Shown here piece after piece: positions 5,231 to 35,132 of a DNA stretch of 64,000 bases. The position numbers and the translations under genes were made by a program. This DNA is from Alphaproteobacteria bacterium. GTDB taxonomy: Bacteria; Pseudomonadota; Alphaproteobacteria; UBA828. Each line of letters begins with the position of its first letter. Within the stretch, counting starts at the first letter, position 1. Location: the NCBI GenBank assembly GCA_022826665.1, contig JAJDUK010000005.1, positions 55,262 to 119,261 on the forward strand, in the 5' to 3' direction. The notes under the pieces are model-generated. The model searched no databases, was not told the DNA's origin, and was given only the letters and a program-made list of their open reading frames with translations.

Positions 5231-5279
5231 GTCGCGCGTCCGCGAAGCCTGACGCGCGCGGAATCTAGCTCTTGCAGGT

Positions 5280-8430: not shown

Positions 8431-9423
8431 ATGCGCCTGCCCACGCTGGCCGAATTCCAAGAGGCCGCCGCCTTCGTTCACGAGACCCTCGACCCCACGC
8501 CGCAGATCCCCTGGCCGCTGCTGGCGCAGCGCACCGGGGCCGAGGTCTGGGTCAAGCACGAGAACCACACCCCAATCTGCGCCTTCAAGGTTAGGGGCGG
8601 CCTTGTCTACATGGACAATCTGCGCCGGCACGGTTCGGTCGCGGGCGTGATCGCCGCCACCAGGGGCAATCACGGCCAGAGCATCGCTTACGCCGCGACC
8701 CGCCTCGGCCTTGCCGCGACGCTGGTGGTGCCGGAGGGCAACGCGGCAGGCAAGAACGCGGCGATGCGCGCCTTCGGCGGCGAGCTGGTGGTGCACGGCA
8801 CGGACTTCGAAGCCGCCTACGAGCACGCCCAGGCGCTCGCGGCCGAGCGGGACCTGGTCATGGTTCCCTCCTTCGACGAGCGCCTCATCCGGGGCGTCGG
8901 CACCTACGCGCTGGAGCTCTTCACCGCGGTGCCCGATCTCGACGCGGTCTATGTGCCGGTCGGGCTCGGCTCCGGCATCTGCGGGCTGATGGGCGTGCGC
9001 GATGCGCTCGGACTCAAGACCGAGATCATCGGCGTGGTTGCGGAAGGCGCCAACTGCTACGCGCTCAGCTTCGAGGCGCGGCGGCCGGTCTCGATCAACC
9101 GGTCCACGACCGTGGTGGGCGACGGCATCGCGACCCGCGAGCCTTCGCCCGAGGGCCTCGACCTGATCCTTGCGGGCTGCGCGCGCATCGTCAGCGTCTC
9201 CGACGACGAGATGCTCGACGCCATTGCCGCCTACCACGCCGACACGCACAACCTCGCCGAGGGCGCGGGGGCGTCCCCGCTCGCGGCGCTGATGCAGGAG
9301 CGTGACATGATGGCGGGCAAGAAGGTCGGGCTGATCCTCTCGGGCGGCAACGTGGACCCTGGCGTCTATGCCCGCGCCATCGCCCGGCTGGAGGCCGGCC
9401 CCGCCACGCAGGCGGCGGAATAG
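8431..9423 (+). CDS. PLP-dependent threonine/serine dehydratase family enzyme
   Basis: Start at MRLPTLAEF inside ORF 8383..9423. PLP lysine block HENHTPICAFKVRGG and glycine loop GLGSGICG. Confidence 0.75.
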   Translation: MRLPTLAEFQEAAAFVHETLDPTPQIPWPLLAQRTGAEVWVKHENHTPICAFKVRGGLVYMDNLRRHGSVAGVIAATRGNHGQSIAYAATRLGLAATLVVPEGNAAGKNAAMRAFGGELVVHGTDFEAAYEHAQALAAERDLVMVPSFDERLIRGVGTYALELFTAVPDLDAVYVPVGLGSGICGLMGVRDALGLKTEIIGVVAEGANCYALSFEARRPVSINRSTTVVGDGIATREPSPEGLDLILAGCARIVSVSDDEMLDAIAAYHADTHNLAEGAGASPLAALMQERDMMAGKKVGLILSGGNVDPGVYARAIARLEAGPATQAAE

Positions 9424-12604: not shown

Positions 12605-12800
12605 CGATAGCCTCCCTGTGTCGGTGCATCCTGCCGTCCGTGCCGGACGCGGCGCGGCCGGGCGCCGGCCTCCTTGCCCAGCGCATCGCCGACGATGGTA
12701 GCCACCTTCAACCGTGGCGACAATCGGCGGGCGCGCTCAAGGCCCGACACGCCCCAATCGAACAAACGCTTGCCCAAACCGGCATAGTCCGGAATGATCC
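12605..12800. promoter_or_regulatory. divergent intergenic region between transporter operon and tetR (inferred promoter/operator region)
   Basis: 196-bp gap between divergently oriented genes. No motif resolved by eye. Confidence 0.3.
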
Positions 12801-13391
12801 TTGGCGGTGGCGGAAACCGACGGGAAGCGCAGGGACAACCGGCGGGGCCGCATTCTGGACGCGGCCGCGGTCGAATTCGCACGCTCCGGTTACAGCGCCA
12901 CCTCGGTGCGGGACATCGCCGCCGCCGCCGGCATCCTGCCCGGCTCGATGTACTACCACTTCGCCTCCAAGGAAGACCTGCTGGCCGCGGTCCATGCCGC
13001 CGGCATCCAGCGGATCAAGGAGCGCGTGCGCGCGGCCATCGAGACCGCGGACGACCCCTGGGACAGGCTGGAGGCCGCCTGCGCCGCCCACGTCGAGACC
13101 CTGCACGCGAGCAAGGACTACGGCTCGGTCATCGCCACCGAGTTCCCGCGCCGGCACTCGCCCAAGCTTCGCGCGCGCATGATCGAGGAGCGCGACGACT
13201 ACGAGAACATCTTCCGCTCGTTGATCGACGACCTGCCGCTGCCCGAGAGCACCAGCCGCAAGTATTTCCGGCTCGCGCTGATCGGCGCCATGGCCTGGTC
13301 CATCGCCTGGTACAGGCCGGGCGAGGACACGGCCGAGGAGATCGCCCGCCACATCGTCAACCTGTTCCGGCCGGCGGCGGAGGCGAAATGA
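12801..13391 (+). CDS. TetR family transcriptional regulator
   Basis: N-terminal HTH ILDAAAVEFARSGYSATSVRDIAAAAG. Its stop overlaps the start of the downstream SDR gene (ATGA). Confidence 0.8.
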   Translation: MAVAETDGKRRDNRRGRILDAAAVEFARSGYSATSVRDIAAAAGILPGSMYYHFASKEDLLAAVHAAGIQRIKERVRAAIETADDPWDRLEAACAAHVETLHASKDYGSVIATEFPRRHSPKLRARMIEERDDYENIFRSLIDDLPLPESTSRKYFRLALIGAMAWSIAWYRPGEDTAEEIARHIVNLFRPAAEAK

Positions 13392-14167
13392 GGCTCGAAG
13401 GCAAGATCGCGGTGGTGACCGGGGCTGCCCGCGGCATCGGCGCGGCCTGCGCCCGGCGCTTCGCCGCCGAGGGCGCGGCGGTCGTCATCGCCGACATCCT
13501 CGAAGAGAAGGGCGAGGCGACGGCTCAGTCGATCCGCGACACAGGCGCCAGCGCCGCCTTCGTCGCCTGCGACACGGGCGACGGCCCGCAGGCGCGCGCC
13601 CTAATCGAGGAGACGCTCACGCGCCACGGCCGCATCGACGTGCTGGTGAACAACGCCGGCATCTTCACCATCGCGGACTTCCTCGACGTGACCGAGGAGG
13701 ACTTCGACCGCGTGCTCCGCGTCAACCTGCGGGGCTATTTCCTGGTGGGCCAGGCGGCGGCGCGGGCGATGGCAGACGCAGGCTCCGGCAGCATCATCAA
13801 CATGTCGTCGGTCAACGCGGAGATGGCGATCGATTCCATCGCGGCCTACGTGGTCAGCAAGGGCGGGGTGAACCAGCTCACCTCGGTCATGTCGCTGGCG
13901 CTCGCGCCCAGGGGCATCCGCGTGAACGCGATCGGCCCGGGCACGATCCTCACCGAGCTCTCGGGCTCGCTGCTCACCGACGAGGCGGCGCGGCGGCGGG
14001 TCCTCTCCCGCACCCCCATGGGCCGTGTCGGCCAGCCGGAGGAGATCGCGGGCATCGCGGTCTTCCTCGCAAGCGACGATTCCTCATACGTCACAGGACA
14101 GGTAATCTACGCCGATGGGGGGCGCATGCGGCTCAACTACACCATGCCGGTGGAGGGCCACGAATAG
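13388..14167 (+). CDS. SDR family oxidoreductase
   Basis: ATG at 13388 inside ORF 12794..14167. TGAARGIG cofactor motif and YVVSK catalytic Y-x3-K. Confidence 0.8.
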   Translation: MRLEGKIAVVTGAARGIGAACARRFAAEGAAVVIADILEEKGEATAQSIRDTGASAAFVACDTGDGPQARALIEETLTRHGRIDVLVNNAGIFTIADFLDVTEEDFDRVLRVNLRGYFLVGQAAARAMADAGSGSIINMSSVNAEMAIDSIAAYVVSKGGVNQLTSVMSLALAPRGIRVNAIGPGTILTELSGSLLTDEAARRRVLSRTPMGRVGQPEEIAGIAVFLASDDSSYVTGQVIYADGGRMRLNYTMPVEGHE

Positions 14168-14973: not shown

Positions 14974-16266
14974 CTAGGCGGTCTGGAACTCGTTCCAGCG
15001 TTTCACGACGAGGATGTTCTCGTCCATGATCGAGTTCCACACGGCGACCCGGCCCATGCGGTTCGCGAACGAGCCGCCGTCGCGGACGTGGCCGGGCTGT
15101 TCCATGACGTTGCCGAACGGGTCCTTGACCTCGCCTTCCGCCGGCTTGCCCTCGTACCAGTAATCCCACTCCCAGGGCTCCATGAAGCCGCGCGAGTTCT
15201 CGGGCGTGCACATGTAGTAACCCTGCTTGGAGAAGTAGGCGCCGGCCGGGCCCGAGTGGTACCAGTTGAAGTAGTCGTAGAGGGCGCCGAGCTTCTTGCC
15301 CTCGACGTGGCGCGGGATCATCGCGCCGAGCGCCCAGGCCCGGTAGCCTTCCTTGAGGTCGAGGTAGATGCAGGGCACGCCGCGTGCGCGCACCGCCGCC
15401 ACCGCCGGCGACCACATGGACTGCAGCACCACCTCGCCCGAGGTCATCAGATTGACCGAATCGTTGAAGGTGCTCCAGAAGGCGCGGAAGTGCCCGTCCT
15501 TCTTGAGCTGGATCAGCCGGTCGAAGGTGTAGTTGATCTCGTCGACCGTCATGTTGCCCTTGTCGCCGTACTCGATCTCCCCATTGGCCTGGAGCGCCAT
15601 GGCGATATCCATGATGCCGATGCCGGGGAAGTTCTGCAGCGCCGTCCTGCCGCTGAACTCGGGGTTGACGAACTCGGCCCAGGTCTCGATCGGGCGGCCG
15701 ATCTTTTCCGGCTGCGCGCCGAGGGTATCGGCGTTGAAGGTGCCGGGCACGATGGTCATCCATTGGCTGGATTCCGGCTCGACGAAGTCTCTACCGTCGA
15801 TGGCGGAGGTCCAGCAGTAGCGCGACGGGTTCATGCCGTCCCCGTACCAGGCGTCGGCATGGATCGTGCCGCTCTTCTTGTAGATTCCGAGCAGCTGGTC
15901 GAAATGCTCGAGCTTGGTGATGTCGATCGCCTGCATGTTGCCGGACGGGAAGATCTGCGGGAACTGCTCGAGATCCGGCTCGAAGAGGTCGGCCGATCTC
16001 GGCTGCGTGAGGGCACGCTGGCCGATTGTGTTGAGATCGACCGCCGACATGTTGAACTGGAAGCCCAGCGCCTCTTCGGCCATCGCCTCGTAGGTGCTGG
16101 AGATCGTCACCGCCGTGCCGATCATACTGATCTCGATGTCCTTGATGTCCTGCGACCAGACCGTCGGGAAACCGCCGAGGCTTGCGCCGGCCGCCACGCC
16201 GGCGGCCGCTGCCGAGCCCTTGAGTACGGACCGCCTGGAAATTCCTGTCTTCTTGAGATCCGCCAT
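14974..16266 (-). CDS. ABC transporter substrate-binding protein (extracellular solute-binding family)
   Basis: Start placed at MADLKKTGISRRSVLKGSAAAAG (Tat-type leader) inside ORF 14974..16377. Confidence 0.7.
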   Translation of the reverse strand: MADLKKTGISRRSVLKGSAAAAGVAAGASLGGFPTVWSQDIKDIEISMIGTAVTISSTYEAMAEEALGFQFNMSAVDLNTIGQRALTQPRSADLFEPDLEQFPQIFPSGNMQAIDITKLEHFDQLLGIYKKSGTIHADAWYGDGMNPSRYCWTSAIDGRDFVEPESSQWMTIVPGTFNADTLGAQPEKIGRPIETWAEFVNPEFSGRTALQNFPGIGIMDIAMALQANGEIEYGDKGNMTVDEINYTFDRLIQLKKDGHFRAFWSTFNDSVNLMTSGEVVLQSMWSPAVAAVRARGVPCIYLDLKEGYRAWALGAMIPRHVEGKKLGALYDYFNWYHSGPAGAYFSKQGYYMCTPENSRGFMEPWEWDYWYEGKPAEGEVKDPFGNVMEQPGHVRDGGSFANRMGRVAVWNSIMDENILVVKRWNEFQTA

Positions 16267-16511
16267 AAGCTTGCTCCTCCCCGTTATGACGTTCGTGCCG
16301 CACCACGCGCGATGCGATCGGGGGGGAGCCGACGAGCAGGGCGCCCGTCGGCGCCGCCCGTCGCGTTGGAGCAGCACCTCTCCACGCCTTATGGCTCAGC
16401 GGGAAGTATGCGGCCCTGTGGCTCGCAGTACAAGCGCGGCACGGGGCGGCGGGTGCCGACAGTCGGGACGAAGCGTCAGCCGCGTCTCATTCTTGAGCGG
16501 GGATCATTCGC

Positions 16512-16817
16512 TCAGCCGGCCCGTGTTTCGAGTGTCGGAATTCCGGACACGTCGACCATGCGCTCCGCGATTGCCAGGTCGTGGGCCCGCTGCAGGTTGA
16601 GCCAAAAGGCCGCGCCGTTGCCGAACAGCTTGCCGAAACGAACCGCCATCTCGGCCGTGACCGGCTGCTTCTCGTTGAGGATGTCGTAGAGGGTCTGCCG
16701 GGAGATTCCGAGGGCGCCGGCAACGGCCGTCTTGGTCATGCCGAGCGCCGGCAGAACGTCCTCCCGCAGAATCTCTCCCGGATGCACCGGCACTAGGGAC
16801 GGGTGTCTCTTGGCCAT
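16512..16817 (-). CDS. higA: HigA family addiction-module antitoxin (XRE-type HTH)
   Basis: 101-aa ORF. TAVAGALGISRQTLYDILNEKQPVTAEMAVRF is an XRE helix-turn-helix, and the overall pattern matches HigA/VapI. No cognate toxin ORF is adjacent. Confidence 0.65.
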   Translation of the reverse strand: MAKRHPSLVPVHPGEILREDVLPALGMTKTAVAGALGISRQTLYDILNEKQPVTAEMAVRFGKLFGNGAAFWLNLQRAHDLAIAERMVDVSGIPTLETRAG

Positions 16818-18147: not shown

Positions 18148-19374
18148 TCACGCCGCGGCTGCGCGCTCCGTGAGCCAGGCCTCGATGCGGGCGATGGATT
18201 CCTCGATCTCCTCGGTGCTCGCGGCGTAGGAGAGGCGGAGGTAGCCCTCGCCGTAGGCGCCGAAGCTGGTGCCGGCGATGGTGGCGACGCCGGCCTCCTC
18301 CAGCAGCCCGTCCTGCAGCGTGCGCGCGTCGAGACCGGTGCCGGTGATGTTGGGCATGGCGTAGAAGGCGCCGGCGGAATCGACGCAGGTGATGCCCTCG
18401 ATCCGGTTGAGCGCGGGGACGATGAGCTTCCGCCGCTCGTCGAAGGTGCGGCGCATGACGTCGACCGACTCCTGCGGGCCGGTGAGCGCCGCGAGCGCCG
18501 CGTGCTGGGTCGGCGCGTTGACGCAAGAGTTGCAGTTGATCGCGAGCCGCGTGGCGTGCGCCGCGAGCGGTGCGGGCCACACCCCGTAGCCGATGCGCCA
18601 GCCGGTCATCGCATAGGTCTTGCTCCAGCCGTCGAGCACGATCACGCGGTCGCGCAGTACCGGATAGTCCAGCATCGTGACATGCTCCCGGCCCTCATAG
18701 AGCAGGCGGCTGTATATTTCGTCGCTCATGATCGCGACGTGGGGATGGGCCTCGAGCCCTTCGGCCAGCCGGTCGAAGGTTTCGCGCGGAACCACGCCGC
18801 CGGTCGGGTTGGCGGGGCTGTTGAGCATGACGAGCCGGGTGCGGGGCGTGATCTTGGCCAGCACCTCCTCGGCATCGAAGGAGAAGCCGGTCTCCTCGTA
18901 GAGCGGGATCGGCACCGGCGTCGCGCCGGAGAACTTGATCGCGGACTCGTAGATGGGGAAGCCCGGATTGGGATAGAGGATCTCGGCCCCCGGCTCGCCG
19001 AACATCAGCGCGGCGAAGAACATTGTGACCTTGCCGCCCGGCACCACCACGACGTTGTCGGGATCGACCTCGCAGCGGCGGTACGTGGCGATGTCGGCGA
19101 CCACCGCCTCGCGCAGGGCCGGGATGCCGTTCGCCGGGGTGTAACCGTGGTGGCCGTCCGCCAGCGCTTTGCGGCCCGCCTCGACGATATGGTCGGGGGT
19201 GCGGAAATCAGGCTGGCCGATCCCGAGATTGATGATGCTGCGCCCGGCCGCCTGCAAGGCGCCCGCGCGGGCCAATACGTCGAAGGCGGTCTCGGTCCCG
19301 AGCCGCCCCATGCGCTCGGCGATCTGCACGTGCGCCTCCCTGTCCCACTCAAAGGCCGCGCATGATGCCACCAA
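18148..19374 (-). CDS. pyridoxal phosphate-dependent aminotransferase (class I/II, aspartate aminotransferase-like)
   Basis: 408-aa ORF. INLGIGQPDF, NPANPTGGV and PLP lysine block LDGWSKTYAMTGWRIGY. Precise start is uncertain. Confidence 0.8.
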   Translation of the reverse strand: MVASCAAFEWDREAHVQIAERMGRLGTETAFDVLARAGALQAAGRSIINLGIGQPDFRTPDHIVEAGRKALADGHHGYTPANGIPALREAVVADIATYRRCEVDPDNVVVVPGGKVTMFFAALMFGEPGAEILYPNPGFPIYESAIKFSGATPVPIPLYEETGFSFDAEEVLAKITPRTRLVMLNSPANPTGGVVPRETFDRLAEGLEAHPHVAIMSDEIYSRLLYEGREHVTMLDYPVLRDRVIVLDGWSKTYAMTGWRIGYGVWPAPLAAHATRLAINCNSCVNAPTQHAALAALTGPQESVDVMRRTFDERRKLIVPALNRIEGITCVDSAGAFYAMPNITGTGLDARTLQDGLLEEAGVATIAGTSFGAYGEGYLRLSYAASTEEIEESIARIEAWLTERAAAA

Positions 19375-19580
19375 AGGAGGCTGCGCGGAACCGGACCTGC
19401 GCTATCATGCGGCGCCGACAGGGAGAGAACTCCGGGCTAGCGCACATCAAGTCCTTCTGTGGCGTTTGCTGTCCTCTCCTGCCGCAGATAATATCCAACG
19501 TAATCAGTAGGATATCTCCAAACGACGATTCTTGCAGTCACCCGAAAGCTCCGCTAGTCTCATTCATAACGTGGGACAGA

Positions 19581-20753
19581 ATGTGGAACAGACACTTGGC
19601 CAAGCAGCTCACCGCCGCCTTCGTGCGCACCGTCAACACCCCGGGCAAGTACCACGACGAGCATGGGTTGATCCTGCGTGTCGTCCTCTCCCAGCGCAAG
19701 CAATGGATCTCGAAATCCTGGGTCCAGCGCCTCGTCATCCACGGCCGGCGCCGCGACCTCGGTCTCGGGGCCTATCCGCTCGTCGGGTTGGCCGATGCGC
19801 GCGAACGCGCCCTGGACAACCGCCGCATTGCCCGTTCCGGCGGAGACCCGCGCGCACGGCCCGCCGCCGCCGCGCCAACCTTCGAGGAGGCCTTCGAGGC
19901 CGTCCTCTCCGTGAAGGCCCCGGCATGGAAGAGCCCGACTTCGCAGGTTTCATGGCGCCAGACGATGCGCCTCTACGTCTTCCCGCACATCGGAAGCCGG
20001 GGCGTCGACACCCTCACCACCAGCGACATGCTCCTGGTGCTCACGCCGCTGTGGAACGATAAGCCGCCCACCGCCAAGCGGGTGCTGCAACGCATGAGTT
20101 CGGTGTGCCGGTGGGCGATCGCCGAGGGGTACCGCAACGACGACCCGACGGCGAACGTGACGAGCGTCCTGCCCAGGCACAAGGGTGAGGAGAGACACCA
20201 TGAGGCGATGCCGTACGTGCAGGTCGGCGCGTTTCTTGTACGCCTGCGAGACGCGGCGGTTCCGCTACCGCGACGGCTGGCACTGGAGTTTCTCACCCTG
20301 ACCGCGGCGCGCACGAGCGAAGTGCGGCTGATGACCTGGGACGAGGTGGACACGGACGCCCGGACATGGACGGTGCCCGCGGCGCGGATGAAGATGATGC
20401 GGGAGCATCGGGTGCCGCTCGCCGAGCGCGCGGTGGCAATTCTCGATGAAGCGCGCGGGCTTCCCCGCCACGGCTCCCGGTGGGTGTTTCCGGGCACCGG
20501 CGGCGCGGAGTTGAGTCAGATGGCGCTGCTGCGCACCATGCGCAGGCTGGACGAGGAAGCGGCCACGCCGCACGGGATGCGCTCGGCGTTTCGTGATTGG
20601 TGTGGCGAGCAGTCCGACGCACCGCACGCGGTGATCGAGGCCGCCCTTGCGCATGTGGTGCGCAACAAGGCCGAGGCCGCCTACGCGCGGTCGGACCTGT
20701 TCGAGCGGCGCCGAGTGTTGATGGAGCAATGGGCGGCGTACCTCTGTCCATGA
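19581..20753 (+). CDS. int: tyrosine-type site-specific integrase (P4/CP4-57 family)
   Basis: ATG at 19581 inside ORF 19362..20753. Catalytic region TAARTSEVRLMTWDE, HGMRSAFRDW (H-x-x-R) and C-terminal Tyr region. Confidence 0.85.
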   Translation: MWNRHLAKQLTAAFVRTVNTPGKYHDEHGLILRVVLSQRKQWISKSWVQRLVIHGRRRDLGLGAYPLVGLADARERALDNRRIARSGGDPRARPAAAAPTFEEAFEAVLSVKAPAWKSPTSQVSWRQTMRLYVFPHIGSRGVDTLTTSDMLLVLTPLWNDKPPTAKRVLQRMSSVCRWAIAEGYRNDDPTANVTSVLPRHKGEERHHEAMPYVQVGAFLVRLRDAAVPLPRRLALEFLTLTAARTSEVRLMTWDEVDTDARTWTVPAARMKMMREHRVPLAERAVAILDEARGLPRHGSRWVFPGTGGAELSQMALLRTMRRLDEEAATPHGMRSAFRDWCGEQSDAPHAVIEAALAHVVRNKAEAAYARSDLFERRRVLMEQWAAYLCP

Positions 20754-24509: not shown

Positions 24510-24866
24510 GTGGCGCTGTTGGAAGCGCTGCCGCGACGGATGGACAGCCCCTGGGTGTTTCCGGGCAACGACCGCTACGGGCGCTACAGCAGCGGCGGAC
24601 TCGACCATGCCTGGCGGACCGTGCGGGCAGCGGCCGGGCTGGAGCACGTGCGGATGCACGACCTCAGACACAGCTTCGCGTCCACGGCGCTCGCCCTCGG
24701 AGAAAGCCTGCCGATGATCGCCAGGCTCCTAGGCCACAGCCAGATCAAGACGACCGCCCGCTACGCCCACCTTGTGCGGCAATCGGTGAAGACCGCCGCC
24801 GACACAGTCGCGGACAGCCTCGCGGAAGACCTGGGCCCGCCCCCGGTCGCTCCGTCCACCGCCTGA
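24510..24866 (+). pseudogene. 5'-truncated tyrosine recombinase (C-terminal catalytic fragment only)
   Basis: 118-aa ORF with MHDLRHSFAS and GHSQIKTTARYAHL (R-H-R-Y catalytic region). No N-terminal core-binding domain upstream in any frame. Confidence 0.6.
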
Positions 24867-25436: not shown

Positions 25437-25988
25437 ATGAAGCCAGCAGTGGCCGTTGTCGATTGGTATGGGCCATACACTCTTGAAGAGGCACGAACCG
25501 CCACCCCAGACTTTGGGGATGGCATCTACATGGCCACCGGAGCATGCAAGTATCAGCGCGCCGTACGGCCTCAGTATTTGGGAATAACATCAAGTCTTTC
25601 GTCAAGACTAAACGGAGACCATCATAAGTTGTCACTGGTCACTCGAGAGCAGGAACTATGGCTAGGGGAAATCGCCAGTTATAGACGGCCTGGTAGGAAG
25701 ACAAAAGCTACCGATAGAATGCTTGACTTGGCTGAATGGGCGCACATCTACTTTCTACAGCTACCCCTCAACGAGAAAAAAAGAGCACAACCTCCAGATT
25801 ATCCGATTACGGTATACAATCGGTGGTGGCGCAACGATTATGCAACTCCACATCGCCGACGTCCACATCAACGATGGCCCGACCTCATCGATTTTGTTGA
25901 CTGCGATTACCCGGCGAAAGTTGTCTGGTTTGGACGGCGTCAGGTCATAAGGCCCGTGCTTGACTTCAAGAACTCACATGTAGTTTGA
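25437..25988 (+). CDS. hypothetical protein (183 aa), first gene of low-GC island
   Basis: Clean ORF in the low-GC segment. No recognisable motif. Confidence 0.4.
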   Translation: MKPAVAVVDWYGPYTLEEARTATPDFGDGIYMATGACKYQRAVRPQYLGITSSLSSRLNGDHHKLSLVTREQELWLGEIASYRRPGRKTKATDRMLDLAEWAHIYFLQLPLNEKKRAQPPDYPITVYNRWWRNDYATPHRRRPHQRWPDLIDFVDCDYPAKVVWFGRRQVIRPVLDFKNSHVV

Positions 25989-26073
25989 AGTCCGTGCTAG
26001 GCGCACTCCACCGCCTTCAGCCGCTCTACATGCGTAGAGGAGATGATCACACATCCAGTCCAAGAACTGAGCT

Positions 26074-26583
26074 CTATGTATTCAGTACGTTCATGCCACT
26101 GGCTGTTTCCATGACCAAGGCCACATGCTCGAGAAATTTGCGTTGCGCATTGTCGGCTAAGTCCACGTGAGTTGTGTCATCACCTACCGTCATATCCACC
26201 GATCCAGTTGCGATGTCGACCTCCACCGTGCCGCCGATCGTCGGGTGTTCTTGAAGGGCCTTGCGTATTCGAATGTTAGTATCTTGCGATCGCCCGGATT
26301 TGCGAAATTGACTAAACCTGGGCCGCAACTCGACCGTTTCTCCTACATAACACTTCGTACGCCCTTCACCGTAAAGGTGGAACCTGTATAGACCGGTCTC
26401 ACGCGTAGTCTCTGGAAACGCTGGGTCGCCCTTGTCGTCCCATGTGATGCGACCGATGCGTCGCCATCGTACCTCGACCGAAAATCGTATCGACTCAATT
26501 CCCGTTACCACCATCTCAGTCGCTGTTGTTCCGATCATCGCAGTTGCTCCGTGACCTCCCATCTGTTGATGATGGCACACCAT
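26074..26583 (-). CDS. GIY-YIG-like nuclease candidate
   Basis: GLYRFHLYGEGRTKCYVGETVELRPRFSQF resembles GIY-(x10)-YVG followed by the conserved Arg-x3-F helix of GIY-YIG domains. Last gene of the dcm operon; start may be MIGTT at 26538. Confidence 0.4.
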   Translation of the reverse strand: MVCHHQQMGGHGATAMIGTTATEMVVTGIESIRFSVEVRWRRIGRITWDDKGDPAFPETTRETGLYRFHLYGEGRTKCYVGETVELRPRFSQFRKSGRSQDTNIRIRKALQEHPTIGGTVEVDIATGSVDMTVGDDTTHVDLADNAQRKFLEHVALVMETASGMNVLNT

Positions 26584-26616
26584 ACTTACGCGCCCAGCGC
26601 CAGCTCCAATACGTTC

Positions 26617-27669
26617 TCACCGCTCATCACCTTGGTCATCAAGATAGCGATGAATTGCCCGTGCATGATGCTCTGCGAACTTCGGCGGGAACGCATTTCC
26701 AATCATTTGTGCTGCTGGATATCTCCCCCGGGAAAGGTCGAATCTATAGCTTTTAGGGAAACCCTGAAGCAGAGCTGCTTCTCGCAATGTAATAGCTCTA
26801 TCTTTTTCCGGGTGTAAGAATCGCCCTTTCGAAGGATTAATGCATCCTCCAGTTATAGTCGGTGCTTCCTTCCTCCATTCCATACGACCATACACATCCC
26901 AAAATCCCTCTAACCTCTTGTGACATTCCAGCTGGTCATCAACGGGCAAGTCCGCTCTACTGCCCCCATCCTTGGGTATGCGGCAAATCAATTCGTAAAC
27001 CTTATGCGCTCGCCTCACTTTGTAATTGTGCGCTGGATCATTCGATTTCTCTGGCGCTGGCAACTTTCGTATAGCTTCAGACACTGTTCTGCGCCGTGAG
27101 GGGCAAGCAAATGGAGGCAATCCCTTAAGGCCTCCCAACAAAAGCAAGCGACGTCGCCGCTGCGGTACACCGTACCGTGCGGCATCAAAGACATCCACAC
27201 CAGTACGGTAATCTAGACAATGAAGTTCGCTCCTTAGCCGCTCCAATCTCTCGTCACTCATGAGAGCAGGTACGTTCTCCATCATAATGGCTTTCGGCCG
27301 AAATACCCTAACGAACCGAACAAACTGGAACACCAGCTCGTTTTGTGGATCGTTTGCGTCCCTCGCTCCATTCAGAGTGCGCAAGGTCGAATATCCTTGG
27401 CAAGGAGGGCAACCCGCTATGAGATCCATCTCCCCGGCTCTTATGCCAAGTACTTTCATCAGTTTTCGCGGCTTGATTGTCGTAATGTCACACTGGAACA
27501 TTCGGGTGTTTCGGTGGTTCTTACGATAGGTTGACGCAGCCAAGGGATCGTTATCGATCGCTGCCACCACGTCGAAGCCAGCTCGACGAAGACCGAGCGA
27601 CAGCCCGCCACAACCTGCAAATAGATCTACCGCTCGCCGTTCCGCCTTCTCGTATTGGAACGATCGCAT
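26617..27669 (-). CDS. DNA (cytosine-5)-methyltransferase
   Basis: All C5-MTase motifs in order: FAGCGG (I), GCPPCQGYS (IV), MENV (VI), QRRRR (VIII), IGNAFPP (X). Start codon overlaps the upstream gene stop. Confidence 0.9.
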   Translation of the reverse strand: MRSFQYEKAERRAVDLFAGCGGLSLGLRRAGFDVVAAIDNDPLAASTYRKNHRNTRMFQCDITTIKPRKLMKVLGIRAGEMDLIAGCPPCQGYSTLRTLNGARDANDPQNELVFQFVRFVRVFRPKAIMMENVPALMSDERLERLRSELHCLDYRTGVDVFDAARYGVPQRRRRLLLLGGLKGLPPFACPSRRRTVSEAIRKLPAPEKSNDPAHNYKVRRAHKVYELICRIPKDGGSRADLPVDDQLECHKRLEGFWDVYGRMEWRKEAPTITGGCINPSKGRFLHPEKDRAITLREAALLQGFPKSYRFDLSRGRYPAAQMIGNAFPPKFAEHHARAIHRYLDDQGDER

Positions 27670-29438
27670 TAATCGACCCTTCCCACAAAGTCCAAACCCA
27701 CCCGAGACAGTGAAGCCCCCAGTTTGTGCAGCAGATTCAATGCATACTCGTAGCGCAGCTGACCGACAACTCGCACTTCTTGTTCCACAAAGCTAAGATT
27801 ACCGTTCGCTGATCTCGTCGACCCTATGGTCAACATTCTTGTGCTAGCAGGGTCGAGAGAAAATAGTCCCTTATTCTTGGCGTAAACAAAGCTCAAAACG
27901 GGCTGGGCATTTCTTTGACTGGTAAACAGATATGACCTATTCTCGCGCCCGTCCAGGTTCAAGAACACACAGCGTCCTTCATTTATTTCATCTGGCCTTG
28001 GCACCGCGCGTGTATCTCTGTGCAGCTTTACCGCGATGAACGGCAGCCACTCCCCGAAGCGGTCACGACGTTCAGCTCCGCCTTGACCAGGTACCAAGTC
28101 GCAGGCCGGGCTCAAACACACCCAGTAATCATCGCCACTCTGAAAGACATGTCCAGTAGTTAAGTGACGTCCTCCGGGGGGTCTGCTGCATGCGAGTACG
28201 TTGTGCTCGATCAATGCTGTCGTTTTTTCCGATTGTTCAGTGAGATCAACCTGAAAGCGTCTATTGCACACTTGTTTGCTGTTCTCACCGTTTGAGTTTT
28301 CAAATTGCACCAGTTCATCGGCGAAGTCACTGACACTTGGGATCACCTCATCAATAAGCAGCTCTGCGTGCCATTTCACGCTTTCTGAAATGTATTGAAG
28401 GCGCACGTCACTGCTCGCGTCCAAGAGCCTGCTGTACCAATAGGCAAGTGCACGGCGTCGAGCAAGAACGTGCTCCTGAACAGGAACACCTTGTTCGTCT
28501 ACCTCCGCCCGCAACCGCGACAAAAGCAGCCGAGAAGGCGTTGGATTCCATCCCGAAAGCGCTTGACTCAGTCGTTGCAAGAGATCGTCGTGCTCTCCCT
28601 TACGAGCAAACGCTATGAAAATGGAACCACTCTGAATCCAATAAGGGTCGGATAGAGCCCACGCAAACTCTCCAACATAGTTGCTGTGCAGGCTCTCCGC
28701 CAATGCCCTTTCCCGCATGACAAGCGCGTAGATTAGCAACGTGCGACGATCATCCTCATCCAAGCCGACGTCGACGCAAAGTGCGTGAAATTCCGCAAAG
28801 GGCTGCTCCGCCGCCTCCATCGTGCCAAACACTTGACCAGGCTCTCGACGGTATTCGAGATATGCCTCCGTCCCAATGCTAGCCAAGAGCGCGTCTTCGA
28901 ACCCCTCCCGTTCGAGCTCCGCTTCATCCAACAGACGCTGGGCTGCTTCGGCGCCAGCACCGCCGCGGGTTAGGTCCTGAGATGCCGAGAGAAGACCGAT
29001 GCGTACCTGCTGAAACACTTCATCCAGCTCTAGGGATGTGTAAATGATTACCAAGTTGAAGTGCTGATTGCCGGCGACATTGCGCAAAATTTCGATTGCT
29101 CTTGAGCCGTCTTCTCGCCGAGTCCGGTCTAACTCATAGTCCAGGACTAACAAGTCCGATTGATGCAAATGCCGTGCAACCTCCCTCGCGCCCTCCTCAG
29201 GTACGTTCTGTCCGTCGTGAATATCCAGTAGGAGCGGCGTATCTCTATCCCGAAACTGCCTTATCAGCTCTCGTACCCGATCTGGCGATTCGCGCCATCT
29301 CTTTTCAACACCTTGGTCCGATTCTGGAGCAGCCAATATGTCGCTATACGTCGGATAGTCATCATCTACGATGAGAACCGAACGAATGGGATCAACATAG
29401 GCTTTTCCTATGAACGCATCGTAGGACTCACACATCAC
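27669..29438 (-). CDS. receiver-like (CheY-fold candidate) N-terminal domain protein with large uncharacterised C-terminal domain
   Basis: N-terminus IRSVLIVDDDYP...TPLLLDIHDGQ...DLLVLDYEL...NLVIIYTS resembles beta1 acidic pair, phospho-acceptor Asp and beta4/beta5 of REC domains, but is degenerate. C-terminal 430 aa has no recognisable motif. 11-nt overlap with the upstream GHKL gene. Confidence 0.5.
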   Translation of the reverse strand: MMCESYDAFIGKAYVDPIRSVLIVDDDYPTYSDILAAPESDQGVEKRWRESPDRVRELIRQFRDRDTPLLLDIHDGQNVPEEGAREVARHLHQSDLLVLDYELDRTRREDGSRAIEILRNVAGNQHFNLVIIYTSLELDEVFQQVRIGLLSASQDLTRGGAGAEAAQRLLDEAELEREGFEDALLASIGTEAYLEYRREPGQVFGTMEAAEQPFAEFHALCVDVGLDEDDRRTLLIYALVMRERALAESLHSNYVGEFAWALSDPYWIQSGSIFIAFARKGEHDDLLQRLSQALSGWNPTPSRLLLSRLRAEVDEQGVPVQEHVLARRRALAYWYSRLLDASSDVRLQYISESVKWHAELLIDEVIPSVSDFADELVQFENSNGENSKQVCNRRFQVDLTEQSEKTTALIEHNVLACSRPPGGRHLTTGHVFQSGDDYWVCLSPACDLVPGQGGAERRDRFGEWLPFIAVKLHRDTRAVPRPDEINEGRCVFLNLDGRENRSYLFTSQRNAQPVLSFVYAKNKGLFSLDPASTRMLTIGSTRSANGNLSFVEQEVRVVGQLRYEYALNLLHKLGASLSRVGLDFVGRVD

Positions 29439-32391
29439 CGAACTTTGCTCCCCGAAACGTGATCAGAAAGTTTGCTCCGTCCAAAGGCATCCTCGCCTTG
29501 TTGGCCTCGTACTTTATTCGGTGACCTCCTGCCGACAAATTCGCCCGGCATAGATACAGTCCCACTCCGCGTCCCCCTCGTGCCTTTCGTGTGAAAAACA
29601 AGGTGAAGAGGTTGCTCACATCTTCTTCATCCACTCCGGGACCATTGTCAGAAACAACCACATCATCTTCGATAACGCCAAAAATGATCCGGCGCTTTTT
29701 TACCTCAGTGCTGGCCAGCCAATAGATGCTGTTGTTCACTAAGTTGATGAACACAGGATAAAGCCGGGACTGCTGATCAAATACCTGCAAACGAAGAAAC
29801 TCATCGGTGGCCTCCAACGCAATTTGGTTTCGCGCCAAAATCGGCTTAAAGAAGTCCGAGGTATATCGAAATACGTCTTCACCTGTGATCCATTTCTGAA
29901 TCTTTTGGCCCGCTAATCGGAGAGGTGACAGGAACCGCAGCTGGTCGGTAAGCCCTTCGTATGCAAATTCGATATCCTTCGCGGCTTTGCTTTCCCGGAT
30001 ATCTCCCGGCAAACGACGCAACCCATCAGCGAGAATGTCGTCGAAGGCTTGAAGATCATGTGCGACGATTTCCACCGCTATGCCAAGCTGCGCCAAGCTA
30101 TTCAGCCTGTCCAGCTCCGCGCGCAATTCGCCCACTTCGTCCGCGTCGAACGTCGCCAAATGCAGCAGGTCTACACTTTCCCCCAAGCTCTCGAGCGTTG
30201 TTATATATGGCAGCAATATATCCCGGTTCTCTTTGTCAAACCTCTCCTTCAATTTATCCATCGCGGCGGAAGCTTCCAAATACGGCATCGCTTGCGCGCG
30301 CACTCGATCCAGCAGCGGTTCGGCTTCTCGAGTGAAAGCGTCCATCCTCTCCTTGACCAGTTCTCTGACGCGTTCGTACTCTGCGCGCTGTAATCTCTCC
30401 GCTTCCTTACCCCAATTATCCAATCGCCGTTTGAGTTCTCGGCCTTGTCGGGTCAATTGTTCAAGGAGTAAATCCTCTGGCCTTGCCGGGTCGACACGTT
30501 CGATCTGCTCTTCCAACTTTTCTCGCAACGCGGCGACCGCGGTTCGGAAAGCACGATAGTTCCGTCGATACTCGACATATTGGCTCTCCAAGCGCGCGCT
30601 CAACTTCTTCGGCTTCACCGGTAGTGTGAAGTCAGAGAGGCGCCCTACAAACGCATCGAGGTCTTCCTTTGCTGGTCCAATTTGCCTTTCTCTCGTTATA
30701 TCAAGTGATTCCACATAGCTCTCAATCTCGTGAAGGACCGCCGGTAGCTCTTCCGCAAAGTCTTTCAAATTCGCGCGAAACGCGCGCGCCTGCCTCTTGT
30801 GAAGCTTCTCGCGTTCTTTATTTGCCTTTTGACGACGATTGTCCTCCCTGATGTCCGGTAAGAAGTCTCCGCGAAAACTGGACTCGGAACCAAAGTACAA
30901 CCTAGCGGATCTCTGCAAAACATTCGCAACGATTTCCCGAAACGTTTTTGCGGCATGGTTGTCTAGAAGCCCTTCTCTCCCCGCCTTGTCCTTGAGGTTC
31001 GGATTAGTCTCGCGTCCGATTGAGAGACGCCCGAACATTTGTCTGTGATTCCAGAATTCACGACCGGCACTCTTGCTGCGGCGTGACTCGATTTCGAAAA
31101 AATCGTTATCTGTACGGCCATAGGGAAGAACACGAAGACCGTCTCGAAAAACCATGAAGCCAGAGTACTTGTTCGCGAGATCGCGATAGCGGTTGAAGTC
31201 CGCTTCGGTGTGCGTGCTGTTTATGGCGGTGAATTCCATTGACGCGATATAGAGGCCGAATGGGCCCACCCGGGTGTCCGCGCGGGTCGGAATTGTTAGA
31301 TCGCGCGGTGGCGGAATGACGCATTCGTCCGTCAGGTCTTTTCCGAAAGCTCTAATGGAGCCTGTGAATACGCCGTCTTCTCCCACCCGCCCCACAATGC
31401 GATGCTCCATGTCATCAATTTGCCGTCTGTCGAACTGTCTCTCGGAACCGACAACTAAATCCGCTGTTCCATTTGTCCAGGCGCGTACGGCATACGAAAA
31501 CTGCGGATCGCTGTTCGACAATGCCTTATCCGAGGGATCTACGAAAGGGTCCACAAAACTCGAAAGCGTCTCGAAGAAACGATCACGCGTCGCCTGTTGC
31601 GCAACCTCACTGTAGTTCCGCTCGATCTGTGCCCGTAAATCATAGTTGAGGCCGGATATCAGTAGCGCCGTACCCCTATCCGACGCATCTGTCCACACAG
31701 GCCAAGGCTCAATGTGTTCCGGTTGGAAAGGCAGCTCAAGAATGTTGGCGATAATGTCTTCGGAGCGAGCGACCTGTATTCCACTTTCCTTCAGTCCGTC
31801 AATCTCCGACCAAGCCTCGGATATTCGAGCAGATCGCCCGGGTTCTCTCCCGCCCTTAACATTTTCCGACAGAGTCTTGGCCAGTAGCGGCAATTCTACG
31901 AATAAATCAGCTCTGTCTTTGAAATCCACAAGAGGAATTTGAATGTCAGAAAGATTGAGAAAGGGATTCTCAAACAATCGCCAATCGATCAGCGCCGCGA
32001 TGAAAGGCGAATCTTTTCTCTTGGACACCAGCAGCAACAAGGGACCCAAGTTCGCACACGAAAGGCGCCCGATTCCCTTTTGGCCTTGGCGTGGCCGAGG
32101 CTTCAGGCCGTTGCGATCCGCTCGACTTCTCGGATCTGCAGTGGCCTTCGCCTCAGTGCCCACCACCAGCCAGTGTCGCTGGAATTCCTCCCCGCTCATT
32201 CCATGCCCGTCGTCCACGATCGCCGCGACAGGCTCCGGGTCCTTGAAGAGGTGGAGTTCGACCATTCTCGCGTAGGCGTCATACGCATTCTTCCAGAGCT
32301 CGGATATCGCCGTCGGGCAATCCGCGATCTGCTCCCGACCCAGGTGGTCTACGGTCCGTGCCCGAGTCTGAAATGCGATTCCTTGAACCAT
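29428..32391 (-). CDS. dual Bergerat-fold ATPase: N-terminal MORC/MutL-like GHKL domain plus C-terminal histidine-kinase transmitter (HisKA-like H-box + HATPase_c)
   Basis: N-terminal ELWKNAYDA (ExxxNxxDA), DDGHGM, GQKGIGRLS. C-terminal IVAHDLQAFDD (H-box-like), INLVNNSIYW (N box), SDNGPGV (G1), LFTLFF (F), GGRGVGLYLCR (G2). Confidence 0.65.
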   Translation of the reverse strand: MVQGIAFQTRARTVDHLGREQIADCPTAISELWKNAYDAYARMVELHLFKDPEPVAAIVDDGHGMSGEEFQRHWLVVGTEAKATADPRSRADRNGLKPRPRQGQKGIGRLSCANLGPLLLLVSKRKDSPFIAALIDWRLFENPFLNLSDIQIPLVDFKDRADLFVELPLLAKTLSENVKGGREPGRSARISEAWSEIDGLKESGIQVARSEDIIANILELPFQPEHIEPWPVWTDASDRGTALLISGLNYDLRAQIERNYSEVAQQATRDRFFETLSSFVDPFVDPSDKALSNSDPQFSYAVRAWTNGTADLVVGSERQFDRRQIDDMEHRIVGRVGEDGVFTGSIRAFGKDLTDECVIPPPRDLTIPTRADTRVGPFGLYIASMEFTAINSTHTEADFNRYRDLANKYSGFMVFRDGLRVLPYGRTDNDFFEIESRRSKSAGREFWNHRQMFGRLSIGRETNPNLKDKAGREGLLDNHAAKTFREIVANVLQRSARLYFGSESSFRGDFLPDIREDNRRQKANKEREKLHKRQARAFRANLKDFAEELPAVLHEIESYVESLDITRERQIGPAKEDLDAFVGRLSDFTLPVKPKKLSARLESQYVEYRRNYRAFRTAVAALREKLEEQIERVDPARPEDLLLEQLTRQGRELKRRLDNWGKEAERLQRAEYERVRELVKERMDAFTREAEPLLDRVRAQAMPYLEASAAMDKLKERFDKENRDILLPYITTLESLGESVDLLHLATFDADEVGELRAELDRLNSLAQLGIAVEIVAHDLQAFDDILADGLRRLPGDIRESKAAKDIEFAYEGLTDQLRFLSPLRLAGQKIQKWITGEDVFRYTSDFFKPILARNQIALEATDEFLRLQVFDQQSRLYPVFINLVNNSIYWLASTEVKKRRIIFGVIEDDVVVSDNGPGVDEEDVSNLFTLFFTRKARGGRGVGLYLCRANLSAGGHRIKYEANKARMPLDGANFLITFRGAKFGDV

Positions 32392-32738
32392 GCCCTCGTT
32401 CCGCGCCCGTCGCCGACCCGATCAGACGGCCCGCTCAATGCCGAACAGACTCCGCACCAACAGCCGAATGAGGCCGACGCCACCACATATAGCATATACT
32501 ACTAAGGATGCCCCAATATGGAGGCGAAGACCGCTCACGGTTCGACGAGCCTTGGGTTCGGCTCCCTCGACATCTCCACTGAATTCGCCCCATCCCGCCT
32601 ACGCTCCAGCCTTCCAGCCACAATTTCAGCAGCCTTGATGCCGGCCTTTTGCTTCCTAGCCTGATTCTTGCCCGTAGTGATCCTCCCCGCTCAAATCCTG
32701 CACTCCCGTGTCCGGTTAGTGCAATATGGCTTCCGCCG
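32392..32738. promoter_or_regulatory. divergent intergenic region between GHKL operon and vsr (inferred promoters)
   Basis: 347-bp non-coding gap between divergently transcribed genes. No motif resolved. Confidence 0.3.
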
Positions 32739-33203
32739 ATGACCGACACAGTCGATCGCAACACCCGTTCTCGCATGATGGCGAGTGTCTCCAGCAAGGA
32801 CACGGCGCCGGAACTCGCTCTGCGTCGGGCACTTCATGCGCTGGGCCTGAGATACCGACTCCATTGTCGGAATCTCCCCGGCACTCCCGATCTGACCTTT
32901 CCTCGCTTCCGAGCCGTCTGTTTCGTACACGGCTGCTTTTGGCACCGCCACCCCCGCTGTCACCGTACGACAGACCCCACCACACGCCCGGAATTCTGGC
33001 ACGCCAAGTTTCAGGCCAACGTGGAGCGTGACCAACGCGCACGACAGCAGCTTCTGGCCGCTGGATGGCGAGTGGCAATCATTTGGGAATGTGCGCTGCG
33101 CAAGGATCGAGCGGAACGTACATCCCACGTGGTGGCCCAATGGCTACACGGCGACGACCGCGAATTCGAAACGCCTCTCTTCGAAACCCGACACCAACAA
33201 TGA
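32739..33203 (+). CDS. vsr: very short patch repair endonuclease
   Basis: ATG at 32739 by frame arithmetic. TPELALRRALHALGLRYRL, FVHGCFWHRH and WRVAIIWECAL are canonical Vsr blocks. Confidence 0.85.
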   Translation: MTDTVDRNTRSRMMASVSSKDTAPELALRRALHALGLRYRLHCRNLPGTPDLTFPRFRAVCFVHGCFWHRHPRCHRTTDPTTRPEFWHAKFQANVERDQRARQQLLAAGWRVAIIWECALRKDRAERTSHVVAQWLHGDDREFETPLFETRHQQ

Positions 33204-33372: not shown

Positions 33373-33560
33373 TCATCGCGCGACGAAACCGGACCATTCT
33401 TCCATCAGCACCCGCCGCCGCTCGAACAGATCCGTCCGGCGATAAGCGGCCTCCACCCGATCGGAATTCACGTGAGCCAAGGCGAGCTCGCAGACTTCGC
33501 GGGGTACGTCGGAGCACTCCGCCGCCCAGTCCCGAAACTGGGACTGGAACCCGTGCAGCC
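33373..33560 (-). pseudogene. P4-type integrase C-terminal fragment (about 60 aa)
   Basis: LHGFQSQFRDWAAECSDVPREVCELALAHVNSDRVEAAYRRTDLFERRRVLMEEWSGF is near-collinear with the C-terminus of the intact integrase at 20590-20750. No upstream part is present. Confidence 0.6.
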
Positions 33561-33566
33561 CGCACG

Positions 33567-34181
33567 TTAGCTCTGCCGACCGAGGTGGCCGAAGTCGATT
33601 TCGTACGGCACACCGGTGAGGTTGGTGAGTGTGACGATGACGCGGAACGGGCTGTCGACGTAGGGACGGGTCAGCCAGCCGGCCGGCAGCGGACCGCCCT
33701 GGAAGGCTGCGGCCGCTTTCGTCGCCTGGCCGATCGCCCTGTCGTTGAACAGCGACTTCAGCGGTTGGCCAGCGGCGATGTCGTTGGTCTCGACGAAGCC
33801 GGCGATGTCCAGTTCCTGCACCCAGGTCTTGTAGAACGGATTGCGGTCCCACTCGACCTCAGACGAGGCGGGCGAGATGTGCGGGAAACCGAAGGCAAGC
33901 GCGCGGGCAAGGATGGCGGCGCACACGCCGCCGCCGGATGCGCCGGCCGCGACACGGATCTTCACGTCGTGGTCGGGCACGTCATCGTCGTTCGTCTTCG
34001 CCACGTACCAAGCGTCCAGCGCCTCGATGAGCTTGTCCAGGAATCCCGCCGTGTAGGCGCCGGCCGAGACCGTGCCGCCCAACACCAGAGCGACCTCGAA
34101 GGTGCCGTCGGGCAGGCTCCGCGTGACGTTGCTTTCCAGGACCCGCAGGATCTCTTTGTTTGTCGGCGCTGGCATCGTCAT
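33567..34181 (-). pseudogene. patatin-like phospholipase, 3'-truncated (lacks catalytic Asp block)
   Basis: Start MTMPAPTNK. Has VLGGTVSAGAY (oxyanion loop), GASGGG (GxSxG) and TNLTGVPYEIDF (TDLxTG block). The ORF ends about 10 aa later, before any DGG/DGA motif, right at the integrase fragment. Confidence 0.55.
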
Positions 34182-34370
34182 TCCCCTTTCGCTGCGTACC
34201 ACCAACTCTACATGGGTACAGGGCTTAACATCAGAGATCACTATCGGATGGAGGCGACTGCCTAGCTTCGCACCCTCGGGCTCGTCACGCTTGGCTGCGA
34301 ATGAGCGATCCACTAACATTCCAACTGAACCAGCCCCCGAGAACAGACGATAAGGCTGAGGTAACCAGTT

Positions 34371-35132
34371 ATGTTGAAGTCTGTCGGTAAGCCACGCCTC
34401 AGGAACGCCCTCAAGAAACTGAGGCGAATTCCATTTAATCGCGAGGATCCCTACAATCTGGCAACGGCACCTGTGGAGATGTTGGAGTTCCTCGCAATGA
34501 TTTCTGGGTTAAAACCAGTTGTACTTATTGGACGGGGATTTGATGATCAGAATTGGATTAGGGGGGTTCAAGATCTCGCTGAGGATATGCACTTGCATGT
34601 GATCGAAGGTCCCAAGTGGGAAGCGATTCCGGAATACAGCGGCTTGCCAAATTGGTTCGCTTTGATAGACCAGAAGAAGCTCTCAGAGAATTCGGTTGTG
34701 TATATTAGCAAATCAAAGTCAATCTCTAAATGTGTTAGGAGAATTGTGGATGCTAGAAGTATTACTATCGAGGAAGAGTCAGCTATCCTTGGTTATCCAA
34801 CATGTTGTGTAAAAGACCATTATTACAAAGCTGAAAGGATGAACAGAGGCTTTAACCTTATGCTGGAGCGGCTCTCTAGTGGTGACAAGTCAGAAATGAT
34901 GCGACTTGTTAGGGAGGACGTACCCATGTCGCCTGAGACTGATGAGGAGATAGAATGCATGAGAGAGGCGACACGCACAGTCGTTGCTCCCTACACGAGC
35001 ATTGTGATGTGTCCTTCCTGCGAAGATGATCAGGATAGTCCAGCTCGTATAGTCTCAAAGAATTACAAGATTCTTGCTGATAGTATCGATCCCCGTCTAG
35101 CGTTAGATATAAACCTTCATCAAAAAGTGTAA
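34371..35132 (+). CDS. hypothetical Cys-rich protein, very AT-rich (foreign)
   Basis: 253-aa ORF with GC about 45% in a 65-70% GC genome. Contains GYPTCCVKDHY and CPSCEDD Cys clusters. No family recognised. Confidence 0.45.
   Translation: MLKSVGKPRLRNALKKLRRIPFNREDPYNLATAPVEMLEFLAMISGLKPVVLIGRGFDDQNWIRGVQDLAEDMHLHVIEGPKWEAIPEYSGLPNWFALIDQKKLSENSVVYISKSKSISKCVRRIVDARSITIEEESAILGYPTCCVKDHYYKAERMNRGFNLMLERLSSGDKSEMMRLVREDVPMSPETDEEIECMREATRTVVAPYTSIVMCPSCEDDQDSPARIVSKNYKILADSIDPRLALDINLHQKV

Follow-up and report, generated by a model that had tools for sequence, protein, structure and literature searches.

Until now treated as a phage speciality, endonuclease II (EndoII, DenA; PDB 2WSH) of bacteriophage T4 is a tetrameric enzyme which promiscuously nicks cytosine-containing DNA and is blocked by cytosine modification (PMC2764454). 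Other described GIY-YIG proteins include the restriction endonucleases Eco29kI, Cfr42I and Hpy188I, the 5-hydroxymethylcytosine-specific restriction endonuclease PD-T4-3 (PDB 9U75), the homing enzymes I-TevI and T4 Seg, and the N-terminal domain of UvrC. Kinase, receiver, C5-methyltransferase and Vsr genes have been described in a common arrangement, and HNH_2, MvaI_BcnI and EcoRII-C genes have been found near other kinase/receiver/methyltransferase systems (Bellieny-Rabelo et al. 2021, PMC8011034); a word search of the main text of that paper gave no mention of GIY-YIG. This study concerns a putative GIY-YIG nuclease gene in 64,000 nucleotides of an alphaproteobacterial contig (JAJDUK010000005.1, positions 55,262 to 119,261), the whole of which is hereafter called the window. 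The gene closes a series of four genes on one strand, in an island of low guanine-cytosine (GC) content (~52%) within a genome of 64-73% GC. On balance it is probably an accessory, stand-alone EndoII-like nuclease cassette rather than a cognate restriction enzyme dedicated to the cytosine methyltransferase (Dcm) encoded before it.

The four island genes upstream of it constitute a textbook kinase/receiver/C5-methyltransferase/Vsr system, with the HEF_HK and HATPase_c_3 domains and the Response_reg_2 receiver encoded adjacent to the methyltransferase. The kinase and receiver genes overlap by 11 nt, and the receiver and dcm genes by 1 nt. While these four genes match the published system, the GIY-YIG gene is a non-conserved addition, present in four of seven related islands. 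An earlier interpretation made from the letters of the window alone (the sequence-only reading) had also placed Vsr next to the GIY-YIG gene; Vsr lies 6 kb away and diverges from the other end of the operon.

Family, fold and catalytic residues

The longest open reading frame (ORF) of the gene, 26074..26583 on the minus strand, encodes 169 amino acids and begins 33 nt past the dcm stop, in agreement with the sequence-only reading, which had it as the last gene of the operon, directly after the methyltransferase. Homologs are 154 or 146 amino acids long, with starts equivalent to M16 (26538) or M24 (26514), and a GGAG stands 8 nt ahead of the M16 ATG; the first 15-23 codons of the 169-residue frame are therefore probably not translated. 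Residues are numbered here on the 169-residue frame, and helices of the predicted structure on the 146-residue form.

The peptide GLYRFHLYGEGRTKCYVGETVELRPRFSQF, in which the GIY-YIG motif had first been seen, is present at residues 64-93, with a spacer between GLY and YVG of 12 residues and not the 10 originally counted. In an alignment of 45 family members Y66, G81, R89, Q100, T102, R148 and E152 are invariant, and Y79, E82 and N168 are conserved in at least 90%; these are the canonical GIY, YIG, Arg, Glu and Asn residues of the superfamily. An invariant Arg does follow the YIG motif, as had been expected, although it is R89 (Tyr+10, the spacing also of I-TevI, UvrC and EndoII) rather than R87. 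The catalytic Glu had been sought in the string VEVDI (E121), and this proved mistaken: the column is variable across the family and holds Lys in the 69%-identical homolog P0003, while the invariant Glu is E152. This residue lies in a C-terminal helix ('RRLxE'; helix 122-138 of the AlphaFold2 model) and is followed by N168. It is predicted to be the metal-binding Glu, its segment corresponding by eye to 'DLEEPLFIKLFNPPWN' of EndoII, in which an E118A mutant is catalytically dead (PMC2764454). The hidden Markov model alignment maps G81 and R89 onto EndoII G49 and R57, and R89 also onto the UvrC Arg. The one deviation of the window copy from the near-invariant positions is a Ser (S96) in 'YRxPGP' where at least 90% of the family have Pro. 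The chain stops at the GIY-YIG Asn (N168 of 169) and comprises little beyond the catalytic domain.

Taken alone, the protein gave no match in Pfam (E<=1), PADLOC or PDB, and the only single-sequence hint was the group I intron endonuclease model TIGR01453 of NCBIfam (E=0.11). Profile PF01541, which the sequence-only reading had singled out, thus failed to match the query itself; it was matched individually by 32 of the 45 family members (E<=0.1; best 1.4e-5), a link which is transitive and holds at the level of the family. An exhaustive HMMER profile search of 1.84 billion representative proteins recovered 795 clusters (at 50% identity) with E<=1e-3, 435 of them with E<=1e-10. About half of the members are stand-alone proteins of ~140 amino acids and the rest are ~250 amino acids long with an N-terminal DUF7662 domain, on which a literature search gave no papers. 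The label 'GIY-YIG nuclease family protein' is already attached to one member in an NCBI record.

Compared with PDB, the family profile matched EndoII (2WSH) with E=2.2e-6 over 96 residues that include the N-terminal region (profile positions 126-221 against positions 4-99 of the chain, a His-tagged construct) and the UvrC N-terminal domain with E=7e-3; none of Eco29kI, Cfr42I and Hpy188I appeared at E<=10. AlphaFold2 with the 45-sequence alignment returned a GIY-YIG alpha/beta fold with a predicted local distance difference test score (pLDDT) of 93.4 and a predicted template modelling score of 0.86; an earlier model from a four-sequence alignment (pLDDT 43) was discarded. The top Foldseek match to this model was EndoII, both in PDB and in a viral model library. 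A tblastn search of phages gave no match. Membership of the GIY-YIG nuclease family, the central claim of the sequence-only reading, is thus strongly supported by the profile, the conserved catalytic residues and the predicted fold. Since the residue set, the PF01541 matches within the family, the PDB profile comparison, AlphaFold2 and Foldseek all agree, the fold assignment is regarded as secure, and by profile and model the nearest relative is EndoII, not the restriction enzymes of the superfamily. The gene is accordingly an addition to the EndoII-like clade of the GIY-YIG superfamily; a modest degree of novelty lies in how large this bacterial family is and in its fusions to DUF7662.

Considerable differences separate the family from each of its described relatives. 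Identity to T4 EndoII is only 15-20%, and EndoII is the product of a phage gene whereas the gene here belongs to a bacterial chromosome or island. The window family also has an extra helical turn before the catalytic Glu, a family-specific 'PGPxQxTNxR' string and, in many members, the DUF7662 domain, which EndoII lacks. The GIY-YIG domain of UvrC is part of a multidomain excision-repair protein, which the window protein is not; the latter shares with EndoII a three-stranded insertion and an additional hairpin at the N-terminus. Eco29kI, Cfr42I and Hpy188I are longer and carry site-recognition insertions or extensions that are absent from the window protein, which structurally groups with EndoII and not with Eco29kI or Hpy188I. 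I-TevI and the T4 Seg enzymes have a C-terminal DNA-binding module and a phage or intron context, neither of which was found for the window family, whose additional domain, when present, is N-terminal. PD-T4-3, at 248 amino acids and with additional domains, is similar only at the level of the superfamily, and a modification-dependent activity like that of PD-T4-3 would conflict with the neighbouring Dcm if the target were 5-methylcytosine (5mC).

The cassette among related islands and distant homologs

Searches with the small protein and the receiver protein brought up six close relatives of the island. The kinase, Dcm and Vsr genes are intact in all seven islands, and the receiver gene in all but L001, whose copy is split by an insertion element. 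The GIY-YIG gene is present in four of the seven (the window, L001, L002 and L050) and absent from L049, L051 and L052. In L049 the DNA is conserved for ~40 nt after the dcm stop and then passes directly to the 3' end of ORF183, a convergent frame of 183 codons, leaving a gap of ~0.6 kb in place of the cassette; tblastn found no GIY-YIG remnant in L049. The cassette does not have the same left junction in every island, and no alternative nuclease was recognised among the genes that replace it in L049, L051 and L052.

The distance from dcm to the GIY-YIG gene is likewise variable. It measures 78-102 nt in the window and rises to ~200 nt in L002 and ~350 nt in L001; the L050 gene abuts dcm, its tblastn match overlapping the dcm stop. 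Unlike the kinase, receiver and dcm genes, which overlap one another, the GIY-YIG gene is not translationally coupled to dcm. It is intact over 146 codons in all four copies, with a ratio of nonsynonymous to synonymous divergence (dN/dS) of 0.24-0.38, and is under purifying selection. Across the same genome pairs the synonymous divergence (dS) is 0.26-0.65 for the GIY-YIG gene, 0.20-1.0 for ORF183 and 0.6-5.0 for dcm; between the window and L001 the respective values are 0.26, 0.20 and 1.82. As the dS of the GIY-YIG gene is near that of ORF183 and far below that of dcm, the 3' module formed by the two genes seems to have been exchanged more recently and to have a separate history, and the island as a whole appears to be a recombinational mosaic.

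The L001 island carries four copies of a 461-amino-acid UPF0236-type transposase in one 20-kb stretch, one of which splits the Response_reg_2 gene into pieces of 205 and 346 amino acids; dcm and the GIY-YIG gene of this island are intact.

More distant members of the family were sampled at 36 genome loci with 8-kb flanks, six loci of the nearest outgroups and one 9-kb plasmid (~43 loci in total). Phmmer searches with the Dcm, receiver, kinase, Vsr and ORF183 proteins of the window found none of them in the 36 distant genome loci, and within the homolog locus set counterparts of Dcm, the receiver, the kinase and Vsr were confined to L001 and L002, which are close relatives. The 131 proteins encoded nearest to the distant members match 174 Pfam families, each occurring four times at most; the 25 commonest Pfam families listed for these neighbours include no DNA methyltransferase, and PADLOC gave scattered single defence matches, with no MTase_II among the families listed. 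The Paracoccus plasmid p9146 (9 kb) encodes a DUF7662-GIY homolog together with a relaxase and BrnTA and no methyltransferase. At the six nearest-outgroup loci (46-47% identity) there is no DNA methyltransferase within 7 kb, the neighbours being a YaaA-like gene, an REase-ARP gene, or PLD/HEPN/KAP genes. A recurrent partner among these nearest outgroups was considered and rejected by blastp. The family as a whole therefore persists without a methyltransferase partner in its sampled neighbourhoods.

Synteny among the distant members is limited to small groups. In four loci (L010, L023, L029 and L035) the GIY-YIG gene follows a carboxyl-transferase gene. In three others a YaaA-like (H2O2_YaaD) gene of ~400-415 codons precedes the GIY-YIG gene, overlapping or abutting it (L004 6757..8411, L005 6775..8411, L045 5809..7438), and the two may form a gene pair specific to a subfamily. 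The homologs at L045 7001..7438 and L098 1898..2359 occupy one chromosomal site beside DUF1491-TauD-acyltransferase-rpsF and differ in the cargo next to them, the YaaA-like gene in one and a gene for an unknown protein of 280 amino acids plus Terminase_2 in the other, which points to an integration hot spot.

Possible activity and role of the gene

The gene product is a small (146-154 amino acids), single-domain and apparently active GIY-YIG nuclease of the T4 EndoII type, belonging to a large and uncharacterised bacterial family. By analogy with EndoII, duplex DNA would be bound through the N-terminal beta-hairpin (W40, G44) and the 'QxTN' middle region; R41/R42 align near EndoII K12 and the 'QxTNxR' region near EndoII K76, both putative counterparts of DNA contacts, and the middle region of EndoII has been implicated in DNA binding and recognition (PMC2764454). 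One strand at a time would then be hydrolysed by a one-metal mechanism such as that of EndoII, I-TevI, UvrC and Hpy188I, with E152 holding the single Mg2+, Y66 and Y79 acting as catalytic tyrosines, R89 stabilising the phosphate and N168 holding the fold. Such an enzyme may be expected to have low sequence specificity, nicking or cleaving probably at degenerate sites, and possibly to be oligomeric. The gene is an optional cassette of ~0.6 kb, situated at the variable 3' flank of a low-GC paraMORC-kinase/receiver/Dcm/Vsr island that was acquired horizontally. There it may form with ORF183 a module with its own history, and its role could be that of an auxiliary effector against foreign DNA or of a selfish passenger.

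The sequence-only reading had instead proposed the cognate restriction nuclease of a regulated restriction-modification system. Such an enzyme would cut target sites left unmethylated by Dcm, with the kinase and receiver as regulators and Vsr repairing deamination damage. The position of the gene, the intact catalytic residues and the purifying selection on them are all in keeping with this, as are the failure to find another recognisable nuclease in the operon, the diversity of nuclease genes near other kinase/receiver/methyltransferase systems (PMC8011034) and the inhibition of EndoII by cytosine modification (PMC2764454). The comparative evidence, however, does not support it. Homologs at 28-50% identity lack an adjacent methyltransferase throughout the ~43 loci, and a true restriction family would not survive in that way; methyltransferase linkage across homologs, which marks a cognate restriction gene, is confined to dcm in the four copies from the islands. 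Three of the seven islands do without the gene, its dS is discordant with that of dcm and its spacer is variable, the conserved partners of dcm being the kinase and receiver proteins. Without sequence similarity to Eco29kI, Cfr42I or Hpy188I, the protein has a promiscuous nickase as its closest relative, and as a bare catalytic domain it has no insertions or extensions for sequence recognition. For these reasons the gene is probably not a cognate restriction gene, and we regard that role as unlikely.

The clean presence/absence polymorphism would also be explained by a free-standing homing-endonuclease-like selfish gene, comparable to T4 Seg, that cuts cassette-free alleles and is copied in during repair. 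Presence/absence between conserved flanks is a feature the cassette shares with homing enzymes, and the discrete ~0.6-kb difference between L049 and the window, the many unrelated intergenic contexts of the family (where members often adjoin or overlap the tail of the preceding gene), the differing cargo at the site shared by L045 and L098 and a dS pattern that suggests recent exchange of the 3' module all fit such a gene. Against this, the protein has no C-terminal DNA-binding domain (NUMOD or helix-turn-helix) such as serves GIY-YIG homing enzymes in recognising long sites, phages gave no matches by tblastn, the gene is not set in an intron or intein, the cassette's left junction varies from island to island, and the small syntenic groups in related taxa (L010, L023, L029 and L035) suggest vertical inheritance; homing is thus considered improbable. 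More doubtful again is a housekeeping nickase for DNA repair, acting for instance with Vsr in very-short-patch repair or with the YaaA-like proteins. Many distant members do have housekeeping genes as neighbours, three are preceded by a YaaA-like gene, the protein resembles the UvrC N-terminal domain, and the island has both Vsr and Dcm. No partner is conserved across the family, however, the gene is patchy among near-identical islands, its nearest outgroups lie in defence or mobile islands, and the Vsr-Dcm pairs of other islands work without a GIY-YIG protein, all of which makes such a role highly improbable.

Several considerations nevertheless weigh against an accessory cassette. In each of the four islands that carry it, the gene comes directly after an intact dcm and shares its strand, which is the layout expected of a restriction gene. 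The seven islands are related copies and not independent samples, and the methyltransferase negatives for distant homologs apply to gene neighbourhoods only. The loss of restriction genes is always tolerated, so that absence from three of the seven islands is no disproof of a restriction role. Since no nuclease domain was recognised in the kinase or receiver proteins by Pfam, PDB sequence comparison or motif inspection, the core of the system may depend on swappable nuclease genes; and since EndoII is blocked by cytosine modification (PMC2764454), protection by 5mC is mechanistically conceivable. An EndoII-like nuclease might then serve as a swappable effector of a phospho-relay-controlled 5mC restriction system, attacking DNA with unmodified cytosine while Dcm protects the host's own DNA and the kinase and receiver gate the response. 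We think this quite unlikely, although if true it would give bacteria a regulated equivalent of the way in which phages degrade unmodified DNA.

Whichever role applies, the bacterial family of EndoII-like, single-domain GIY-YIG proteins is large (at least 795 clusters), mostly unannotated and often fused to DUF7662, and it survives in genomes without a partner methyltransferase; tolerance by the host might come from regulation that restrains an enzyme of low specificity, or from dependence on DNA structure or modification. The islands with the gene (window, L001, L002 and L050) and those without it (L049, L051 and L052) offer a natural comparison, within paraMORC-kinase/receiver/Dcm systems, for any contribution of an add-on nuclease to restriction. 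They also carry a warning for annotation, in that a small nuclease gene beside a methyltransferase gene is not to be called a restriction enzyme from its position alone.

Other genes and features of the island

The features of the locus and of the protein are collected in Table 1.

Table 1. Positions of genes, cassette and conserved motifs in the window; the last row refers to the related island L001.
Feature	Position	Strand	Basis or remark
GIY-YIG (T4 EndoII-like) gene, likeliest coding sequence	26074..26538	-	Homolog lengths, GGAG, profile, fold
GIY motif, G64-L65-Y66	26386..26394	-	Y66 invariant in 45 family members
YIG motif and Arg helix, Y79-V80-G81-E82...R89	26317..26349	-	G81, R89 invariant; Y79, E82 at least 90%
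Q100-x-T102 of the family-specific 'PGPxQxTNxR' middle region	26278..26286	-	Aligns with EndoII middle region
E121 (VEVDI)	26221..26223	-	Column variable; Lys in P0003
C-terminal catalytic helix and Asn, R148/E152/N168	26080..26142	-	R148, E152 invariant; N168 at least 90%
GIY-YIG cassette, approximate extent ~0.6 kb	25990..26586	not assigned	Between dcm stop and ORF183 stop; L049 alignment
ORF183, convergent 183-amino-acid ORF	25437..25988	+	Beside cassette in 5/7 islands
C5 cytosine DNA methyltransferase (Dcm-type)	26617..27669	-	PF00145 E=1.4e-60; PADLOC MTase_II 2.3e-83
Response_reg_2 receiver protein	27669..29438	-	PF19192 E=4.5e-22; 1-nt overlap with dcm
paraMORC-type GHKL ATPase fused to histidine-kinase module	29428..32391	-	HATPase_c_3 + HEF_HK + HATPase_c
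Vsr very-short-patch repair endonuclease	32649..33203	+	TIGR00632 E=4.9e-43; divergent from operon
UPF0236-type transposases (L001)	4160..5545, 7109..8494, 12021..13406, 15359..16744

ORF183 has a constellation of residues resembling that of GIY-YIG proteins, namely GIY (29-31), YLG (47-49), R57 (Tyr+10), H62/H63, E100 and N112, of which G29, Y31, Y47, G49, R57, E100 and N112 are invariant in 30 homologs. The Pfam matches of these homologs are weak (GIY-YIG in 8 of the 30, best 0.011; GIY_YIG_2 in three), and hhalign places the motifs in register with those of the main family at only 3% probability; ORF183 may be a second, divergent GIY-YIG protein. It occurs in five of the seven islands, including L049, which lacks the main gene, and its distant homologs are solitary too. 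An obligate pairing of the two genes was rejected, as distant members of either family lack the other nearby.

The kinase protein matches the model NF050001, 'BbrUII/HgiDII family restriction enzyme' (E=1.6e-16), over its N-terminal GHKL ATPase only (residues 12-128), as well as a PADLOC Type II restriction endonuclease model (1.1e-8), which hints that the paraMORC GHKL protein may itself come from a restriction-enzyme lineage or be part of a restriction machinery. The C-terminal region of the receiver protein (~430 amino acids, residues ~150-589) is strongly conserved, with H412, C441, C446, D447, P450, Q560, R562, Y565 and N568 invariant, and gave no Pfam family match or PDB sequence match; it is possibly the effector of the system. 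A reading of 'D447...AVK471' in this region as a PD-(D/E)xK motif was rejected, as position 471 varies among K, R, Q and L.

A scan for promoters and terminators around the GIY-YIG gene found nothing above shuffled expectation. The low-GC island is flanked by two frames, 24510..24866 (+) and 33373..33852 (-), whose translations by eye look like C-terminal fragments of tyrosine recombinases ('HDLRHSFAS...GHSQIKTTARYAH' and '...AYRRTDLFERRRVLMEEW'). The latter string resembles the end of an integrase-like ORF of 463 amino acids at 19362..20753, which suggests nested insertions. Beyond Vsr and the integrase-like fragment lies a second low-GC patch (34000..35000, ~50-51% GC) with an ORF of 253 amino acids at 34371..35132 (+).

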